A stretch of DNA of 64,000 nt, from assembly GCA_028707635.1 (NCBI GenBank), contig JAQWAQ010000003.1, positions 804-64,803 on the forward strand, in the 5' to 3' direction. Source of the stretch: Negativicutes bacterium. GTDB taxonomy: Bacteria; Bacillota; Negativicutes; JAAYSF01. Each line of letters opens with the position of its first letter. The stretch's first letter is position 1. Under the pieces are notes generated by a model, which ran no database searches, had not been told where the DNA came from, and saw nothing but the letters and a program-made list of their open reading frames with translations. Shown here in pieces: positions 12,380 through 21,935 of the stretch. Position numbers and translations under genes: made by a program.

Positions 12380-12716
12380 TTACTTTCTCCCGATAGAGTA
12401 ATATTCTACTCCCGCCGCTTTCATTGCTTCAGTTCCATAGAATATTCCTTCCATCATAAACCAAAGGAGTTCGCATAAACTTCTTATAAGTTTCTGGTTT
12501 CACAGCTTTTATCTCGCCCCACTCGGTAAAGATAAAGCAAACATTAGCGCCTTCTAAAGCTTCCTTCACGTTATCAACGTACTTTATGCTTCCCCTGTCG
12601 TTTTTACCTTCAGGATATTTTTTCTTGGAGGCATCTGTACCGACAGGGTCATGTGCCCAAATATCCGCCCCCTACGCCAATAATAAAGGTGCGTTTTCAA
12701 GTAATGCGCTTCGCAA
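12380..12716 (-). pseudogene. ugd: C-terminal remnant of UDP-glucose 6-dehydrogenase
   Basis: Hand translation: LLA*GADIWAHDPVG...EALEGANVCFIFTEWGEIK...PLVYDGRNI / AGVEYYSIGRK*; internal stop and frameshift; the 5' part is missing next to the IS. Confidence 0.75.
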
Positions 12717-12837
12717 GAATTACTTCTTGTGCGAAGTGGCAATGATCTCCGATTTAATGGATTGATAGTGGCTATTCTTGGGTGTAAGCGGTCAAGTACT
12801 TTTTTAAAAAAACGGCCATTAATTTTGACCTCGTCCA

Positions 12838-13270
12838 ATATAACTAAGTCGGCATTTAATAATTGTTTGACTCGCCGTTGGCTGCGTTGGAGCATAGTCT
12901 GTGTCTTTAATATATTTAGCAATTCAAGATGGCTTTTACCGATACCAGGCGGCCCTAAATAAATAATGTTATACGCATCTTTAAGCCAGTGCATTTCCTT
13001 TAGTGTATCTATCTGGCATTTAGAAACAGACGTCTGGAAGCCAAAATCGAAGCTTTCAAGAAGTCCCTGATAAGGGAACTTGGCTTGTTTCATGCGTATA
13101 TCCAGCGATTTCTTCTGCCTAGCTGTTACTTCGGTTTCCAGACATTACTTAAGAAATTCGGGATATGCCGGTTGCTCCTTAACTGCTTGATTAAATAATT
13201 GTGGTAAAGCCTTTTTAAATTCGCCCATATGTAGTTCGGTCAACATCGCAGCAAATTCGGTTCCTGTAAA
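12838..13270 (-). pseudogene. istB: IS21 helper ATPase IstB fragment
   Basis: AKFPY..LESFDFGFQ, LGPPGIGKSH fused by deletion to ADLVILDE; in-frame stop upstream. Confidence 0.8.
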
Positions 13271-13274
13271 ATCC

Positions 13275-14210
13275 CTCAAGTAGTTTTATTGAAGGTATCG
13301 GCTGAAGGTGCTGTTTTTCTAGGGCATGCACTTTCGCCGGTACTTTTTTTGTTGTGCCATGCTCTTTGGCATTACCTGTTCGATCCAGCCAGTCAAGCTG
13401 CGCCTGATTTCAATCTTGCAACGTAGTGAACAGTCGGTGTTTGGCGAAATTGTATTTTACGTACTTTACAGTGGACTCAACCTTGCCTTTAGACCCAGGG
13501 TCACCCTTACGACATAGGTACACTTTAAAGCGCAAAGTTTGTTTAAGTCTTTCAAATTCTTCAGTATATAAAATATCACCGTGATTTTCGCTAACAGCTA
13601 CAAGTTTATCCTGATCGAATACTAATTCTTGTGGCATTCCGCAGATATATTCAAAACAACGTCGCAGCATGGCGGTTAATCGGGCTGTGGTAAAGGGTTG
13701 ATCACTCCATTCGGCATATTTAAATCGTGAATGGGCTAGAACCGGCGCCATACAGTATACTTTTCGCTTGCGACCACCGGAAGTAGGAACGGTAATCTCA
13801 CCGAAGTCAACCTTCATTTGCTGTCCGGAAGACAGCTCATCAACAGCTTCACATTGGTGGTATGCAACGCTTTTTTGTAAGCCATGAGCTTTTCTTAATG
13901 CCGCTACATACCTGCGTACAGTACGTTCACGAAAGCAACTAAATGGATAAAGTTCTTTTAACCAGTCATGAATTTGAGCCGAACTTAAATCAGGATACTG
14001 TTTTAACCGAGCCAGAATCTGTGCTTGATATTTGTCTAGCTTGCTTGATCGGCGCTAGTTTTTTGCCTCATCTCCGCAAACCCTTGCGGATCAATATCCC
14101 AGTATTTGATAATCGTCTTGATATCCAAATCCTAGATTCCGTGCAGTTTGTGATTTGTTCAATCCTTCAGATTTTAATTACTGGATTTCACTATACATTG
14201 GCCACCTCAA
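13275..14210 (-). pseudogene. istA: IS21 transposase IstA fragment
   Basis: HTH N-terminus with a stop and frameshifts; QMKVDFGE, ELVFDQDK, DPGSKGKVESTVKYVK. Confidence 0.85.
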
Positions 14211-14483: not shown

Positions 14484-15518
14484 TCATAGTTCATCAAATG
14501 ATGTCAAAAAGTATGAACGGCGATCATCTTGATTTAACAGCAAAAATTCTGCAAATATATTGCTGAATTTATCTGCTCCAATATTGTTAAGATGGCTTTT
14601 ATCTCGAAAATACGAATTTGGAAATTTAGCTATATCAGGTTTTAGCAAGCAAAAATCATAATATTCTAGGCCTTCTTCCTCCGCGAGCCGGGCAAAGAAA
14701 TCATGTGCTTGCTGATAATTTCCAGTGTCGGCAAGTAATGACTTTGGCATGGGGGCAGTAACCAAGACAAGCTCTATATTCTCCTGCTTACAGATTTCTA
14801 TAATTTTTTGTAAATAAAAAAAACCTTCCTCGTTTTTATTCTTGTCGTCCCAGACCGATAAAGGTCTAGCCATTTCTGCGTCCCCGGCCTGATAAGAAGA
14901 AACAACAAAGCCTTTTATGCCATAGGTAAAATAGCCTGATTGAAATGGAAGATATCTTCGATAAGTGGCGTTCATCTTTTCCGCTAGAGTATTCTTCATA
15001 TATCTAAAGTTAAATTTGCTTCTGTATCTGTAACTGTGAAAAAAAACATCGGCGTAATTGTCCGGCTTAAATGCATGAAAAAAATACTCCATTTTATTTT
15101 GCGAAGGAGCAAAGTAATCATAAATAACCAAGCTTGTCATAACATGGTTTTGACTCAATTCGGACGCAAGAAATACAGGATATGTAATCTCATATATTAT
15201 CTGTTTCGGTTTATAAATACTTAACAACTCTTTGATGATATAGTAGCTGTCTTGAGGAGTTTGATTTGAAGAGCCCAAATTAAAAGAATTGATGCCCAAC
15301 TTACTGTCAAATATTGCGGGATCAAATGATTGGTAAGTATGGGAAGCGCCGACGAAAGCAATATCTATGTTTTTTTCCTGTGCGTAAAAATCGTGCATTG
15401 TCCATCGGGTAAAACCATATGCCGGAATCAGCAAAAACGCCAGGATTCTTTCGATAATGAAAAAACCGACTAAAAAGACAGTCAGGCGAATAAAAAATTT
15501 TCTATTAGAACTGTGCAT
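14484..15518 (-). CDS. membrane-anchored SGNH/DltD-like acyltransferase
   Basis: N-terminal TM; FVGASH (catalytic Ser), NLGSSNQ, FRDKSHLN (D-x-x-H); overlaps the MBOAT gene. Confidence 0.75.
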   Translation of the reverse strand: MHSSNRKFFIRLTVFLVGFFIIERILAFLLIPAYGFTRWTMHDFYAQEKNIDIAFVGASHTYQSFDPAIFDSKLGINSFNLGSSNQTPQDSYYIIKELLSIYKPKQIIYEITYPVFLASELSQNHVMTSLVIYDYFAPSQNKMEYFFHAFKPDNYADVFFHSYRYRSKFNFRYMKNTLAEKMNATYRRYLPFQSGYFTYGIKGFVVSSYQAGDAEMARPLSVWDDKNKNEEGFFYLQKIIEICKQENIELVLVTAPMPKSLLADTGNYQQAHDFFARLAEEEGLEYYDFCLLKPDIAKFPNSYFRDKSHLNNIGADKFSNIFAEFLLLNQDDRRSYFLTSFDEL

Positions 15519-16932
15519 ACAGAAACCCCTTTACAATATCAGAACCCTGGACTTGCAGCAACATAATTACGAATATAGCCGCATAGCATACACCGCATCG
15601 TACGATAAATGGAAGATAAGCATACTTCTGGAAATATTTTTCCCGGTCAAGTTCAATGCCGTGTGAGAACAGAGTAATCGCCATACCAACGGCCAAAAGA
15701 AGCAAAAACTTTCCACCCAGTCCAAACGCCAACGACCAGGTGGTAGGGTAAAAAACATATTTGCAGATAATAACCCATGCATCGTGAGCGCTTCCGGCTC
15801 TTATAAAAATAATTAATATGGTGTTAATAAGCATCGTCAACGAGATGCCTAAAACTGTAAACACAACTGGCGGCAATTCCTTTTTTAACTTTTTACGTTT
15901 CTTCGCAAAAAGAGCCTCGGCCGCGACAACAGATCCCATAAAGAGACCCCATAGGAAAGCCGCGACTGAAACCTTGTGCCACAAGCCGCTAAGAACTAAC
16001 GTAATGATTGCCGCAAAAACCGAGGCATAGATGCCATATGCTCGCCAAGCAAACTGGAGAGGAGCAAAGACATAGTCGGAGAGCCAACTTGATAAGCTCA
16101 TATGCCAAGCTCTCCAATACTCTGAAATCGTTTGCTGGAAGAAAGGCGCCTTGAAATTGTGCTTAACTTTATAACCTAAAATCTCACATATACCGACCGA
16201 AATATCCGTATAGGCCGAGAAGTCAAGATACAGTTGAATTAGATATGCAAATGCAACAATCAACCAGCTTAATCCATTGCTCACACTCATATCAGTAAAA
16301 ATTGGAGTAATAGCAAGAGCAAGTCTGTCGGCGATTACTAATTTTTTGAAATATCCCCACAAAATCAACAAAAAACCGTTGCGGAAATTATCCGGGGAAA
16401 ACTGTTTCTCCTGCCTGATTTGCGGTAAAAATTCAATTGCCCGCGTTATAGGACCTGCTACAATTTCGGAAAATAAACAAAGATGCAACAACAAATAGTC
16501 ATAGCGTTTCTCCGGCTCTATTCGTTCAAAATATACGTCAATCAGATAACTCAGGCTCTTAAACATATAATAAGAAAAACCTAGAGGAAAAACAATTGAT
16601 GCGCTAATGCCAACCGGAGAAACCAATGCGTTTAAAAATTGATCGGGAAGCCTTGTATATTTAAGCAAAAAAAATCCAGCCATGATAATAGCTATACAGC
16701 TTATCATAAATACAAACTGCTTCTGCTTGTGTTGTTTTATCATAAGCCTTGCCGACAGATAAACAAATAGCGCGAACAGAACCATAAACAAAGGTGCCCA
16801 TTTCGCCCAGCAATAGTAAAAGAACAGACTTGCCAGAAGCAGTACAAAGGATTTAATTTTCTGAGGGACACAAAAGTATATGCTGAAAACCACAATTAAA
16901 AATAAAATAAAAGAGAATGACGTAAAGGACAT
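15505..16932 (-). CDS. MBOAT family O-acyltransferase (AlgI/DltB/PatA-like)
   Basis: PLGFSYYMFK, GPITRA, YLDFSAYTDI, WRAWHMSLSSWL, LSGLWH; C-terminal FLYAQF. Confidence 0.93.
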   Translation of the reverse strand: MSFTSFSFILFLIVVFSIYFCVPQKIKSFVLLLASLFFYYCWAKWAPLFMVLFALFVYLSARLMIKQHKQKQFVFMISCIAIIMAGFFLLKYTRLPDQFLNALVSPVGISASIVFPLGFSYYMFKSLSYLIDVYFERIEPEKRYDYLLLHLCLFSEIVAGPITRAIEFLPQIRQEKQFSPDNFRNGFLLILWGYFKKLVIADRLALAITPIFTDMSVSNGLSWLIVAFAYLIQLYLDFSAYTDISVGICEILGYKVKHNFKAPFFQQTISEYWRAWHMSLSSWLSDYVFAPLQFAWRAYGIYASVFAAIITLVLSGLWHKVSVAAFLWGLFMGSVVAAEALFAKKRKKLKKELPPVVFTVLGISLTMLINTILIIFIRAGSAHDAWVIICKYVFYPTTWSLAFGLGGKFLLLLAVGMAITLFSHGIELDREKYFQKYAYLPFIVRCGVCYAAIFVIMLLQVQGSDIVKGFLYAQF

Positions 16933-16961
16933 TTATCCTACCAACTTTTCATATTTTATGC

Positions 16962-17201
16962 TTAGATTTTGCGTTCAATAGCATCGGCCATTTCGCCGAC
17001 GTTGGCAAATCCGGAAACTTCCTTCATATCAAATTTAATATGAAAATGCTTTTCTATCGTAATGATAAGGGTAACATACGTCAAGCTGTCCCAATCCTCT
17101 ATATCGGCGGCGGTTGTGGACTCTTTTACGTGAATTGTTTCATCGTCAAAAACATCCTGAAAAATAAGGTTAAGATTCTTGAAAATTTCTTGTCTTGTCA
17201 T
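16962..17201 (-). CDS. acyl carrier protein
   Basis: WDSL phosphopantetheine site; ATG 17201 with RBS GGAGA. Confidence 0.9.
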   Translation of the reverse strand: MTRQEIFKNLNLIFQDVFDDETIHVKESTTAADIEDWDSLTYVTLIITIEKHFHIKFDMKEVSGFANVGEMADAIERKI

Positions 17202-17598
17202 TTTTCTTCTCCGTTTCAATAAGTTCTATCATCCCTGCGCTCTCATTTATAAGAAAACATACTTCCCTGTTGTCTATTGCGGGCGTTTTGAATGGCTCGC
17301 CTAATAAAACATAGTTGCGATCAACAAACTTCTGCGCTGTCTCCCGAATATTCTCAGTTTCATAGCAAATATGGTATGGGGCGTTTTTATAGCGCTTCAG
17401 TAGACGCCAAGCTGCGGATTCCGGATCAATCGGGCAAATTAACTCCACCATATAACCGCCATTTGAAACAAAACATATACTTTGGTGCATATCTTCATAG
17501 TATTTGCTTTCCTTGACAATTTCGTATCCCAAAAAAAGAAATTCTTCCAGCGCATCTTCTAATCTTTTAACCAAATATCCGATATGATGTATTCTCAT
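17170..17598 (-). CDS. VOC-family protein (methylmalonyl-CoA epimerase-like)
   Basis: IHHIGYLV, MVELICP, PYHICYET, MIELIE metal-ligand pattern. Confidence 0.85.
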   Translation of the reverse strand: MRIHHIGYLVKRLEDALEEFLFLGYEIVKESKYYEDMHQSICFVSNGGYMVELICPIDPESAAWRLLKRYKNAPYHICYETENIRETAQKFVDRNYVLLGEPFKTPAIDNREVCFLINESAGMIELIETEKKNDKTRNFQES

Positions 17599-17599
17599 A

Positions 17600-18520
17600 T
17601 TAGCTTGCCTTTCTCGCTAAAATGGAAACTGTGATCGGAAGCTTGCGCTTCAAACAAAATTCTAGGTTTTTGTTGCGGTATAAAAACAATTTCATCTCTA
17701 GAATAGTAAGACCATTTTCGCAGAATAGATTCGCAAGTTCGTCCGGACTCCTGAATAGTGAAATATGATCAATTGCAGGAGCGTTAATCGCAGTTGTTAT
17801 GTGTATGAGAGTTTTTTCGTGAGCCAGATCAGAGCATTTTTTTATAAACGCACCCGGGTTTTCTACATGTTCCAAAACTTCTCCGCATACTATTGCGTCA
17901 AAAGCATAAGCACCTGATTCCATAGTCAAAAAATCAAGTTTTTTAAGTTCATATTTTTGCGGCTGTGTCATTGAATGCCATCTAAGAAAGGATTGTACCA
18001 TATGTAAGCTGTCATCACTGATATCAATACCTACAAACCGTCCATAGTCAAAGCTTTGAACCGCTGTTTTAAAATAATATCCATGACCTACCCCAACCTC
18101 CAGATACAATTTCCCCTTAAAATTATGGAAAGATTGCAGAAAATATTTCCTCATAGCGGAGTGGTTTGGCCATACGAACAAAGACAAAAGAAGTCCGATC
18201 TGATAAGAACGCATATAGTGCGTATCCTTAGAGAGCATATATTCGTTCACTTCCTTATAGGTTGAGTACCTATATTTCCCGTGCTCAATAAAATATTTGC
18301 TCTCCTCCAAAGTATCATCATTGAAAATTTGATAGCAGTCTAGGATATCTCTTTCCGTCATACCGTAAACATCACAAATAAATTGAATGCAGGAATCAAA
18401 TTCTCGCTTTTCCTGTTCAGTCATACCGCTATAGAGTTCAGCGATATGGCTTTGAAAAGGGAAACGATCTAAAAGTTGGCCTATCATAGATTCCAAACGT
18501 GAAAAATCTGATATTCCCAT
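17600..18520 (-). CDS. class I SAM-dependent methyltransferase
   Basis: YLEVGVGHG motif I, GIDIS, CGEVLEHVENP. Confidence 0.85.
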   Translation of the reverse strand: MGISDFSRLESMIGQLLDRFPFQSHIAELYSGMTEQEKREFDSCIQFICDVYGMTERDILDCYQIFNDDTLEESKYFIEHGKYRYSTYKEVNEYMLSKDTHYMRSYQIGLLLSLFVWPNHSAMRKYFLQSFHNFKGKLYLEVGVGHGYYFKTAVQSFDYGRFVGIDISDDSLHMVQSFLRWHSMTQPQKYELKKLDFLTMESGAYAFDAIVCGEVLEHVENPGAFIKKCSDLAHEKTLIHITTAINAPAIDHISLFRSPDELANLFCENGLTILEMKLFLYRNKNLEFCLKRKLPITVSILARKAS

Positions 18521-18533
18521 TGGCTTCTTCTCC

Positions 18534-20330
18534 TTATGTCAGCATTTCCAGGTGGATAACCTTATTTTTTTTTACATAGTTACTGATATTAAGCGACCAT
18601 ATGGTATTGTGGGAGTCGTCTTCATTTATGCATTCAAACCCTAGCTGTCGATAAAAATCCCTGACCATACCATTTTTCGCTGTGGGAAAGTAATAACCGA
18701 TCAAGCGATCCAGTCCAACGGCCTGTGCTTCTTCAGCGAGCCGATCCAGCATGGCCAACTCCATATCCCGCTTCAACACCCGGCAACTCATCAACCAGAG
18801 TTCTATATGTAATGCGTATTCTTGGATTCTGCCAAGCACAACTGAGACAATTCCATTATCGCCAAATTTATCCCTAAGCTGTCCGCACAGACGTATATAC
18901 GCCGGATTTGTCGCGACCTGTTGCATTTCGCTTTCAGTATAGCGTTTGGTGGTCAGATTAAACTGGTTGGATTTATTAGTAAGTTGTACAATACGTTGCA
19001 TATTTATCGGTTTGAAATCCTCAATGGAACCTTGCATCGAAAGGGAATACAGGTATTCTTCATAGTTTCCAAAGCATCGCTGTTCTTGTTTCCTTGAAAC
19101 ATCCTGCCGATACAGCTCACTGCGCTTTCTGTCTTCTGCAGATAACGACACATTTTCAAAGTAGCCAGAATGATCCAGCACGGAAATATACTCTTCAATC
19201 CTTCCAATGTCAGGTGTTGCAACACTGGGCATTCGTACCGACACAATTTCGCGTTCTGCCGGATTATCGTCCACAAAGACGAGACTGTCAGTACCGATAT
19301 TCAACTCTTCGGCAATGGCATATATATTCTCATCTTTATTATTCCAGTTGGCTTTAATTACAGTAAAATCTTCAGGATTTAACAAAGAATTCGGATGCTG
19401 CAAGCCAGCCAGAGCGTTTTGCTCATCATTTTTAGAACAAATAGTCAGTATTATGCCCATGTCTTTATGAAACTTAATATACTCCTGAAATTCGGCATAT
19501 GCTTGTCCCATAGGCATTTCGGGACCTATTTCCAGATTCTCCACACCATCGTCACCGACAACGCCGCCCCAGAGCGTATTATCCAAATCTAAGACAAACG
19601 CTTTTTTATTCTTCCCCAAAATCGCTTTGATGATATTGGCTAGATTAAATGCAAATTCAGGGATAGCATTCACATTAAGCGCGTATTTGTACATATACCA
19701 ATAGAAGGAAGAATGCCACTTATCCAGCCCATATACTGCTGATAAATAATCAATGTCATGAATATAAAAATCTCCATGATTACGGGCAAATCCATAAATT
19801 TTTTGATTGAGACGGGAAACATAATTTGATTTTCCCCTTAGATCGCTTATGTCACGATTGCCAAGCAGTCGATAATTCGGACGTTCAAAATTATTTTGAA
19901 TAATGGGACATTGATATGTCTCTTTCAAGTTAGTCCACAGCGAAACGAAATGGTCGAACTGTGCTTCCAGCATACGTTCAACCTCATCATCACTATTTTG
20001 CTGTGAAGGCCAGTTTATTATATTACGGCTACTCGTATGCACAAATATAATATCTGGTTTGAAGGTTGCCAATTCCTGATTTTCAAACATCGCATCCTGC
20101 CAATAGCGATTGTACTCACTTTCATAGAAAACAGGACGAATACCATGGTTTAACAAAAACAACTCTAAAATAGAGACTATTTCACTGGTTGTTGATCCCC
20201 CTAGGACAGCAATACGTTTCTCAAAAAATTCCTTTGATGAGGAAAGGAGCTTTTTGCGCAAAGATTTTTTCTTTTTCAGGATGAAATCGCTGTCAAATGG
20301 AAAATTCATGATACACTCACACATCCCCAT
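18534..20330 (-). CDS. fkbH: FkbH-like HAD-IIIC glyceryl transferase/phosphatase (start may be ATG 20309)
   Basis: VLDLDNTLWGG (HAD DxD), FVDDNPAER, QLTNKSNQFNLTT, DKFGDNG, WLMSCRV. Confidence 0.9.
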   Translation of the reverse strand: MGMCECIMNFPFDSDFILKKKKSLRKKLLSSSKEFFEKRIAVLGGSTTSEIVSILELFLLNHGIRPVFYESEYNRYWQDAMFENQELATFKPDIIFVHTSSRNIINWPSQQNSDDEVERMLEAQFDHFVSLWTNLKETYQCPIIQNNFERPNYRLLGNRDISDLRGKSNYVSRLNQKIYGFARNHGDFYIHDIDYLSAVYGLDKWHSSFYWYMYKYALNVNAIPEFAFNLANIIKAILGKNKKAFVLDLDNTLWGGVVGDDGVENLEIGPEMPMGQAYAEFQEYIKFHKDMGIILTICSKNDEQNALAGLQHPNSLLNPEDFTVIKANWNNKDENIYAIAEELNIGTDSLVFVDDNPAEREIVSVRMPSVATPDIGRIEEYISVLDHSGYFENVSLSAEDRKRSELYRQDVSRKQEQRCFGNYEEYLYSLSMQGSIEDFKPINMQRIVQLTNKSNQFNLTTKRYTESEMQQVATNPAYIRLCGQLRDKFGDNGIVSVVLGRIQEYALHIELWLMSCRVLKRDMELAMLDRLAEEAQAVGLDRLIGYYFPTAKNGMVRDFYRQLGFECINEDDSHNTIWSLNISNYVKKNKVIHLEMLT

Positions 20331-20569: not shown

Positions 20570-21935
20570 TGTAAACGCTAATATATAAATGAGCCACTTT
20601 GGCACAAAACGCTCACGAAAAAATGAGCCACCTTAAGTAAATTAACCTTTAAAATAGACTTAAGTGAGTCTGTTTTGGAGGTGTAAAAGGTGGTAATCAC
20701 ATTGGACGACTATGCTGAAATACGCAGGCTATTTAATTCCGGCATCAGCAAGCGTGCCATTGCCAAAAAGCTCGGCACTTCTAAAAATACAGTAGATAAA
20801 TACTGCCAAGGAGATACAGCTCCATGGAACAGAAAAAAGTACAGCCGTCAATCAACAATTATCAGCGATGACGTAATGGAATTCATTCGACAATGCTTAG
20901 AAGAGGATGAACGCGAAGGTGTTCGTACGCAGAAGCATACCGCTAAGCGGATATTCAACCGGTTAGTTGATGAATGCAATTTTACCGGAGGAGAAAGCAC
21001 AGTTCGAAGAACTGTAAATCAATTAAGGGAAAAGGTGCAGAAACCTTTTATTCCCCTGGAATTTTCTCCTGGTGAAGCACTTCAAATAGACTGGGGAATT
21101 GCTAAGATATACTTAGATGGTCATAAGATGGATGTTAATCTGTTTTGTGCCGGGCTCTGTACCAGTGATGCTCCCATCGTATTCGCTTTTGAAAAGCAAA
21201 ACGAAGAAAGCTTTCTTGAGGCTTTAGTACGAGCCTTCCAGCATTTTGGTGGAGTCGCTAGACGTGTATTCTTTGAAAATGCGAAAGTAGCCTGTTAAAG
21301 AAGGATTTGGCTCGCGTGCTATTAAACAAGATCGATATACGGCTCTCGCTGCTCATTATGGATTTGAAACTGTTTTCTGCAATCCATCTGAAGGACATGA
21401 AAAAGGCTTGGTTGAAGGGCTGGTTGGCTGGGCTAGATGAAACATTCTAGTACCTATCCCCAAAGTCGAAAGTCTGGAAGAATTAGATGGCCAGCTTTTG
21501 AAGCGTTGCAATAAATATCTGGATCACATCGTCAGAGGCAAGACATCAAGCGTAGGCGCCCTTCTTAAGTTTGAAAAAGAAGCTCTTATGAAATTGCCAA
21601 GCTATGTATTTGACACAAGCCGCAGCGTTAATACTTACGTGGACAGTTATTGTACAGTGCGTTTTGACACTAATAACTACTTTGTACCTATTTCTCATTG
21701 CGGTCATGAGGTGGCTGCAAAAGGTTACGGTACAAGGGTTGTAATATATCACCGCAGTACGGTAATTGCTAAACATAACCGCTGTTATGGCAAAAGGCAA
21801 ACCATTTATGAATTAGCTCATTATCTCCCTCTTTTAGAGAAAAGACCACGCTCTATCTTAAATGCTAAACCGGTAAGACACGCTTTACCACAGGATATCT
21901 TAGAATGGTTAGCTAGTTTGCCGGTAACTTTTTGA
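20570..21935 (+). mobile_element. second, different IS21-family remnant (left end plus broken istA; no istB or right end seen)
   Basis: TGTAAACGCT left end with a repeated AAATGAGCCAC motif; istA follows. Confidence 0.8.
20690..21935 (+). pseudogene. istA: IS21 transposase IstA, frameshifted
   Basis: ALQIDWG, RVFFENAKVA, +1 frameshift near 21293, GHEKGLVE, in-frame TGA near 21437, TVRFDTNNY. Confidence 0.85.

Follow-up and report, generated by a model that had tools for sequence, protein, structure and literature searches.

A glyoxalase-fold protein and a methyltransferase encoded between FkbH and acyl carrier protein genes of a Negativicutes bacterium probably tailor a carrier-bound acyl group

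The stretch of DNA analyzed in this work (hereinafter referred to as the window) comprises 64,000 nucleotides of a Negativicutes bacterium genome (GenBank assembly GCA_028707635.1, contig JAQWAQ010000003.1, positions 804 to 64,803 of the forward strand). Within the window, a closely packed operon of six genes (14484-20330, minus strand) was distinguished, which encodes, in gene order, an FkbH-type loader, a class I S-adenosyl methionine (SAM) methyltransferase (MT), a VOC (glyoxalase-I-fold) protein, an acyl carrier protein (ACP), an MBOAT membrane acyltransferase, and a membrane-anchored protein of 344 amino acids (aa) (Table 1). The subject of this study is the MT and the VOC protein, encoded one next to the other between fkbH and the ACP gene. 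The fkbH stop (18534) and the MT ATG (18520) are spaced by 14 nt, the MT stop codon TAA (17602-17600) is directly followed by the VOC ATG at 17598, and the ACP ATG (17201), preceded by the ribosome-binding site GGAG, is located 32 nt within the VOC 3′ end; both the MT and VOC genes are intact and translationally coupled. None of the six operon products showed a Pfam match to the 3-hydroxyacyl-CoA dehydrogenase or acyl-CoA dehydrogenase families (i.e., the FkbK and FkbI types), and the operon does not represent a methoxymalonyl/hydroxymalonyl-ACP pathway, in which FkbK and FkbI adjoin FkbH and ACP. The domain matches and coordinates thus bear out an earlier, sequence-only reading of this region, according to which a VOC gene and a SAM methyltransferase gene are placed between fkbH and the ACP gene and no FkbK/FkbI dehydrogenases accompany them.

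Table 1. Genes of the FkbH-ACP operon in the window, listed from the first to the last gene.
Gene product	Coordinates	Strand	Size	Matches and features
FkbH-type loader	18534..20330	minus	598 aa	TIGR01686 4.8e-87 (292 bits, cut-off 147), HAD-IIIC 2.2e-18, FkbH_N 5.8e-13
Class I SAM methyltransferase (MT)	17600..18520	minus	306 aa	Methyltransf_12/23/11, 5.6e-12 to 1.5e-09
VOC / glyoxalase-I-fold metalloenzyme	17170..17598	minus	142 aa	Glyoxalase_4 3.2e-16 (residues 4-115)
Acyl carrier protein (ACP)	16962..17201	minus	79 aa (from ATG 17201)	PP-binding 2.2e-05 and ACP models; DSL phosphopantetheine motif
MBOAT / DltB-like membrane acyltransferase	15505..16932	minus		MBOAT 3.6e-15; DltB model 1.2e-42, under its cut-off
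Membrane-anchored protein	14484..15518	minus	344 aa	No Pfam match; candidate DltD/SGNH-like extracytoplasmic transferase

The affiliation of the VOC protein with the VOC superfamily is supported by the domain match and by conserved metal-ligand positions. In an alignment of 34 VOC sequences, residues H5, E52, H76, and E125 (the ligand positions) were invariant, also in the copies embedded in nonribosomal peptide synthetase (NRPS) proteins, and the same was true of Y75, C78, and Y79, which gives the signature ‘YHxCY’. The closest solved relatives of this protein are the structures PDB 2QH0/3HDP of the Clostridium acetobutylicum glyoxalase I (E 5.3e-27 over residues 1-131, ~45% identity), which have in common with it the ‘PYHICYE’ motif and the His/Glu/His/Glu ligand positions. 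The score obtained with the model of canonical glyoxalase I (TIGR00068) was 21.1 bits (cut-off 120), with the model of methylmalonyl-CoA epimerase (TIGR03081) it was 42.2 bits (cut-off 114.95), and the structure of the human methylmalonyl-CoA epimerase MCEE (3RMU) was matched at E 5.4e-5. In the sequence-only reading, the protein had been described as a methylmalonyl-CoA-epimerase-like VOC enzyme; the VOC fold is upheld, but the comparison with the epimerase needs correction, since the glyoxalase I structure is by far the closer one. The C. acetobutylicum glyoxalase I is reportedly activated by Ni2+/Co2+. It is a homodimer, in which each active site is placed inside one subunit (reviewed in PMC5412262); it was assayed on the methylglyoxal-glutathione hemithioacetal, and its product is a 2-hydroxyacyl thioester (PMC5412262). 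A search of the bacterium's own genome (92% complete) gave no match to GshA-type glutamate-cysteine ligase, whereas the GshF model was matched with its C-terminal half only and under the cut-off. As GshA was not found, a glutathione-dependent glyoxalase role would have no visible cofactor supply in this genome.

In an open reading frame (ORF) of 890 aa (G000:C39:18348-19328), the similarity to the GshF model is confined to that model's C-terminal ATP-grasp half and stays under the cut-off. A short peptide taken from the 2QH0/3HDP alignment had no match among the 243 retrieved proteins or the ORFs of the loci.

The MT is a class I SAM methyltransferase, as indicated by matches to Methyltransf_12/23/11/25/31, by the GxGxG motif, and by the class I fold. 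It is composed of an N-terminal helical domain of ~125 residues and a part with the conserved SAM-binding motif (E141-x-G143-x-G145-H-G147), and its family is distinguished by the specific motif ‘NAPAIDHI’. The structural model (pLDDT 94) retrieved only generic class I methyltransferases, including the polyketide synthase O-methyltransferases StiD/StiE, at TM ~0.5. Methyltransf_3, i.e., the FkbG-type family resembling caffeoyl-CoA O-methyltransferases, was not among the Pfam matches of the MT at E<=0.01. The exhaustive profile search delimited a family of 667 clusters (E<=1e-30). We propose that the MT is a putative O-methyltransferase of glyceryl-S-ACP.

For the analysis of gene neighbourhoods, contexts were looked up with seven homologues of the MT or the VOC protein (36-58% identity), and nine loci were returned. 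In all nine contexts, ACP and VOC genes adjoin the homologue, and fkbH is present in all of them except the loci L004 and L005, which are truncated by contig ends. The enzymes presumably handling the acceptor differ between those loci: MBOAT and DltD-like proteins are encoded in L003, L005/L006, L007, and L009, while in L010 and L011 there is a hexapeptide acyltransferase beside DegT aminotransferases. In L001/L002 (Synergistaceae), the module is placed in a flagellin island which also encodes a DUF4910 protein resembling Cj1295, a protein of the Antibiotic_NAT fold, and a DUF2920 protein. It was observed that both families follow FkbH and ACP regardless of the acceptor enzyme, in MBOAT, LbH/GNAT N-acyltransferase, flagellin-island, and NRPS contexts alike. 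The Synergistaceae island (L001/L002:826-8891, GCA_009783355.1) encodes the DUF4910 protein, the Antibiotic_NAT protein, a second methyltransferase, a protein of 258 aa assigned to no family, VOC, ACP, and FkbH, and then another ACP, the DUF2920 protein, and an MT 55% identical to that of the window, and it is situated beside FlaG and flagellin genes.

The same linkage was found in larger samples. Among 80 metagenome loci anchored on the MT, 15 had at least 3 kb of sequence on both sides, and within 8 kb of the MT gene all 15 had FkbH and ACP, 10 had VOC, and five had MBOAT. The VOC-anchored sample consisted of 80 loci from species genomes (mostly Lachnospiraceae), of which 59 were flanked by 6 kb or more on either side; in these, ACP was found in 53, FkbH in 45, MBOAT in 37, and MT in two. 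Where VOC did not adjoin fkbH, the latter gene was located elsewhere in the genome (10/10 genomes tested). At the whole-genome level, in a sample of 151 genomes of one family, FkbH was identified in 24, VOC in 12, and both in 10, which corresponds to an odds ratio of 45 (Fisher p 8.5e-8, uncorrected for relatedness). In many Lachnospiraceae loci (e.g., L013:10380-11864), a conserved ORF of ~494 aa without a Pfam family lies between VOC and convergent ACP-FkbH-GDSL genes, and in L020 and L029 a 513-aa ORF, also without a family, is placed upstream of VOC.

Gene fusions also link the two enzymes with the carrier. A search for long proteins with the VOC profile revealed three metagenomic NRPS proteins, i.e., P0242 (VOC-FkbH-C), P0243 (C-FkbH-VOC-T-C), and P0241 (VOC-T-C), all of which retain the H/E/YHxCY/E signature. 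Long matches of the MT profile comprised three VOC::MT proteins (P0276, P0282, and P0312), one MT::MaoC (P0327), two GNAT::MT, and one MT::ACP (P0389). The MT::ACP gene was found on contigs of two independent samples in the arrangement 343 aa - MT::ACP - VOC - MBOAT - 332 aa, and one VOC::MT gene is followed by ACP and then MBOAT genes; these cassettes are of the same type as that of the window. The fusions MT::ACP, VOC::MT, and C-FkbH-VOC-T support the action of the two enzymes on a carrier-bound acyl group.

It should be stressed that neither enzyme is a constant companion of FkbH. In the one-family sample, 14 of the 24 FkbH-positive genomes had no VOC, and among five FkbH-positive genomes of the window's phylum an adjacent VOC was found in one, VOC was lacking in three to four, and the MT family was absent from all five; that VOC is obligatory for FkbH loading is ruled out by these genomes. 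Similarly, the loci L155, L166, and L174, with contiguous MT-FkbH-ACP genes and without VOC, rule out the dependence of the MT on VOC. The two enzymes are optional add-ons, independent of each other, and such an occurrence is the pattern expected for tailoring of the loader's product and not for parts of the loading step. The earlier suggestion that the MT is a variable add-on was supported when homologous cassettes were checked (as said above, an MT accompanies few of the VOC-anchored loci), and the optional status extends to VOC, for which it had not been proposed. In three MT-positive cassettes devoid of VOC (L148:8935-10611, L150:8172-9605, and L161:8770-9237), the slot between MT and fkbH is occupied by a MaoC dehydratase, which either stands by itself or is joined in one protein with a short-chain reductase. 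Together with the MT::MaoC fusion, this suggests a parallel branch of tailoring, in which glyceryl would be converted to lactyl. In the loading module of bryostatin biosynthesis, a dehydratase and reductase pair reportedly converts the FkbH-loaded glyceryl into lactyl.

As for the genomic setting, the operon is surrounded by a Wzy/MurJ/UDP-sugar-dehydrogenase polysaccharide locus, and its fkbH is the sole FkbH match in the genome. Transposase remnants flank it at 12584-13817 and 20690-21935 (IstB, rve, helix-turn-helix, and Mu-transposase C-terminal domain). Its G+C content is 0.38-0.40 versus 0.45-0.50 over the initial 12 kb of the window, which, taken with the flanking remnants, is consistent with its acquisition as a module. 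A search of 30 relatives did not find the cassette DNA, FkbH was identified in just 7 out of 200 further genomes from the window's phylum, and there were no FkbH matches in 14 named control genomes. The motif WDS does not vary among 26 cassette ACPs, and homologues of the 344-aa protein come after MBOAT in the related cassettes L003, L005, L012, and L175. MBOAT is the probable downstream user of the tailored acyl-ACP, and the 344-aa protein is probably a DltD/SGNH-like transferase.

Taken together, we consider it probable that both enzymes tailor the ACP-bound, FkbH-derived acyl group. FkbH domains load D-glycerate from glycolytic phosphoglycerate (PMC10099666, PMC8949500), and by this function, established for the family, the FkbH of the window would convert a phosphoglycerate-type glycolytic intermediate to D-glyceryl-S-ACP. 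The MT would then use SAM to methylate a hydroxyl of the carrier-bound glyceryl. The 2-OH may be a somewhat better candidate for the methylated position than the 3-OH, as the same MT family occurs in cassettes where the 3-OH should be lost through the MaoC dehydratase and reductase, if these work as in bryostatin loading. The VOC protein is expected to bind a divalent metal via His5, Glu52, His76, and Glu125 and could take the proton from C2 of the 2-hydroxyacyl thioester, which would leave a metal-bound enediolate, as occurs in the glyoxalase I reaction; re-protonation from the opposite face would result in D-to-L epimerisation, which is what methylmalonyl-CoA epimerase does on its own substrate. 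Speculatively, Cys78, Tyr75, and Tyr79, located beside the ligand His76, might provide the second acid/base. Finally, the (O-methyl)glyceryl group would be passed from ACP through MBOAT and the SGNH-like protein to a surface polysaccharide.

The product of glyoxalase I, a 2-hydroxyacyl thioester, is of the same chemical class as glyceryl-S-ACP, which supports C2 chemistry on the carrier. Among reactions starting with C2 proton removal, epimerisation is plausible as the best single guess, and we rate the chance that the VOC protein performs the D-to-L conversion as somewhat short of even. Thus, of the earlier proposal that glyceryl-ACP is epimerised and/or O-methylated, the action on an ACP-tethered acyl group is supported by the FkbH/ACP linkage and the fusions, and O-methylation by literature precedent (PMC7099621, PMC3068675, PMC10143770), whereas the epimerisation part is weakened by the nearest relative being a glyoxalase I and by the sub-threshold score of the methylmalonyl-CoA epimerase model.

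Other explanations of the two genes have to be weighed as well. The glyoxalase I activity of the closest solved relative (PMC5412262) allows for a VOC protein which acts on the carrier-bound acyl group and is not an epimerase: the enediolate could lose the 3-OH, giving enol-pyruvoyl- or pyruvoyl-ACP, or, in glyoxalase-I chemistry, a hemithioacetal formed between a 2-oxoaldehyde and the thiol of ACP could be turned into 2-hydroxyacyl-S-ACP. That a dehydrating enzyme can replace VOC is visible in the cassettes where MaoC, with or without the reductase, takes its slot, and in the MT::MaoC fusion. However, the C. jejuni product described below retains both oxygens (2,3-di-O-methylglyceroyl; PMC3068675), which speaks against dehydration. 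A second route of loading would be redundant, as 10 of the 12 VOC genomes also have FkbH, and in the window operon no reductase is encoded beside VOC. We regard a non-epimerase reaction on the carrier as rather unlikely. The observation that the model of canonical glyoxalase I is so poorly matched by the VOC protein, together with the lack of a GshA match in the genome, the existence of the fusions, and the ACP/FkbH linkage in dozens of species and at the whole-genome level, makes it highly improbable that VOC works as an ordinary glyoxalase I in detoxification, that MT is an unrelated housekeeping methyltransferase, and that their placement in the operon is accidental, although 2QH0/3HDP was deposited and published as glyoxalase I.

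The sugar is another conceivable substrate, in which case VOC would act beside the carbonyl of a nucleoside diphosphate-4-keto-6-deoxy sugar as an epimerase or isomerase, and O-methylation of the glycan would possibly be the task of the MT. In three loci (L061:8096-11638, L075, and L076), VOC is placed between a PglF-like 4,6-dehydratase (Polysacc_synt_2, 3e-123) and a DegT aminotransferase (1e-92), and neither fkbH nor ACP was found within 10 kb of it; in L010, L011, and L056, too, DegT genes lie in the vicinity of the module. Both searched genomes with this layout, G001 (holding L061) and G002 (holding L075), have fkbH elsewhere, though, and the insertion-sequence-flanked operon of the window contains no dehydratase or aminotransferase gene. 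Moreover, the VOC domain shares one chain with FkbH and carrier domains in NRPS proteins, where no sugar is involved, the MT is fused to ACP, and it is the acceptors which vary among contexts while FkbH and ACP remain constant. An enzyme pair acting on the sugar is, in our opinion, distinctly improbable.

Several points weigh against the tailoring of glyceryl-S-ACP by these enzymes, and should be given together. The closest characterised relative of the VOC protein is a glyoxalase I working on a glutathione hemithioacetal, and the models of both methylmalonyl-CoA epimerase and canonical glyoxalase I score far under their cut-offs. The layout of L061, L075, and L076 would also fit a keto-sugar nucleotide enzyme, and the VOC-FkbH co-occurrence carries no phylogeny correction. 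Contact between VOC and ACP is weakly supported by structure prediction: the complex of two VOC chains and one ACP chain scored 0.46, whereas the best of three controls scored 0.00; agreement between runs covered at least 92% of contacts, with a partner pLDDT of at least 88. In the calibration of this score, 58 of 80 solved complexes and 2 of 110 mismatched pairs came up to the mark, with 7 of the 80 solved complexes and both passing mismatches falling at scores <=0.60; the VOC-ACP run used its own alignments and a 2+1 chain set-up, unlike the calibration set.

The general logic of FkbH-loaded glycerate being modified on a carrier is already known. [quoted passage not shown] Both this module and the FK520-type methoxymalonyl-ACP pathway (FkbH, FkbJ, FkbK, FkbI, and FkbG) share with the proposed route the O-methylation of an FkbH-loaded glyceryl on its carrier before transfer; they are, however, assembly-line or extender-unit pathways, no VOC enzyme takes part in either as described, and the window operon differs from them in having no FkbK/FkbI oxidation steps and an MT which is not of the FkbG (Methyltransf_3) type. 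With D-alanylation by the Dlt system (DltA, DltC, DltB, and DltD) the operon has in common the passage from a carrier protein to an MBOAT and further to an extracytoplasmic transferase, but the Dlt loader is an adenylating enzyme instead of FkbH, and nothing in Dlt is equivalent to the two carrier-tailoring enzymes. Methylmalonyl-CoA epimerase (TIGR03081, MCEE) has the VOC fold and takes and returns the C2 proton of an acyl thioester, which is the reaction type proposed for the VOC protein of the window; the match is weak, and the substrate here would be a 2-hydroxyacyl-ACP and not 2-methylmalonyl-CoA. The C. acetobutylicum glyoxalase I, in spite of the common motif and ligand positions, was assayed on the methylglyoxal-glutathione hemithioacetal, whereas the VOC gene of the window is placed in an FkbH-ACP operon in a genome without visible glutathione synthesis.

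The same gene set as in the window (in the order FkbH-MT-VOC-ACP) is present in the cj1299-cj1302 region of Campylobacter jejuni, which encodes an ACP, an MT, an ‘epimerase’, and FkbH; of these, we take cj1299 to be acpP2 and cj1300 to be the gene of the SAM methyltransferase. The gene cj1301 was ‘annotated as an epimerase’ (PMC7099621). The product, too, is an O-methylated glyceroyl on a surface sugar, as the flagellin of C. jejuni NCTC 11168 bears 5-(2,3-di-O-methylglyceroyl)-pseudaminic acid (PMC3068675; also a 2026 preprint). In a comparison of three C. jejuni strains, one with a pseudogene of cj1302 (the fkbH-domain gene) and another without cj1301 both had no dimethylglyceric-acid sugars (PMC7099621). 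The difference is that in C. jejuni the attachment of the acyl group takes place in the cytoplasm, by an amide link to a nonulosonic acid, while the MBOAT and SGNH-like pair of the window predicts an ester on an extracytoplasmic polymer. It has to be added, among the points unfavourable to our interpretation, that the presumed homology of Cj1300/Cj1301 to the MT and VOC proteins of the window comes from annotation and from the resemblance of the Synergistaceae island. That island (L001/L002) resembles the cj1295-cj1306 region.

In the literature search, no paper was found that combines FkbH with MBOAT and polysaccharide or FkbH with glyoxalase, the search for FkbH with ‘glyceroyl’ returned polyketide papers only, and a paper on Clostridium flagellar glycosylation contains no mention of FkbH, glyoxalase, or carrier proteins. 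The literature searched describes neither a dedicated glyoxalase-fold partner of FkbH nor a stand-alone MT family which supplies a Dlt-like MBOAT route.

Among the decorations of bacterial surface sugars are glyceroyl and O-methylglyceroyl groups (e.g., on Campylobacter flagellin), and the literature searched assigns no enzymes which build them. One MT family, that of the 667 clusters, and one glyoxalase-fold family are, as shown here, dedicated FkbH-ACP partners across many phyla. Tentatively, and more as a possibility than as an expectation, the ‘YHxCY’ VOC proteins may form an undescribed subfamily of carrier-protein-dependent 2-hydroxyacyl-thioester epimerases or enediolate isomerases, which would set the stereochemistry of glycerate in surface glycans and NRPS products and would include the C. 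acetobutylicum ‘glyoxalase I’, with an acyl-ACP as its physiological substrate; along with the MT family, they may constitute the missing genetic basis for (O-methyl)glyceroyl decorations of sugars. The dedicated partnership with FkbH-ACP makes likely the re-annotation of hundreds of genes currently described as ‘glyoxalase’, ‘VOC family protein’, or ‘UbiG-like methylase’, and it allows the variation of surface epitopes in gut commensals and pathogens to be predicted from gene content, i.e., from the presence of FkbH alone or of FkbH with VOC, with MT, or with the dehydratase/reductase.

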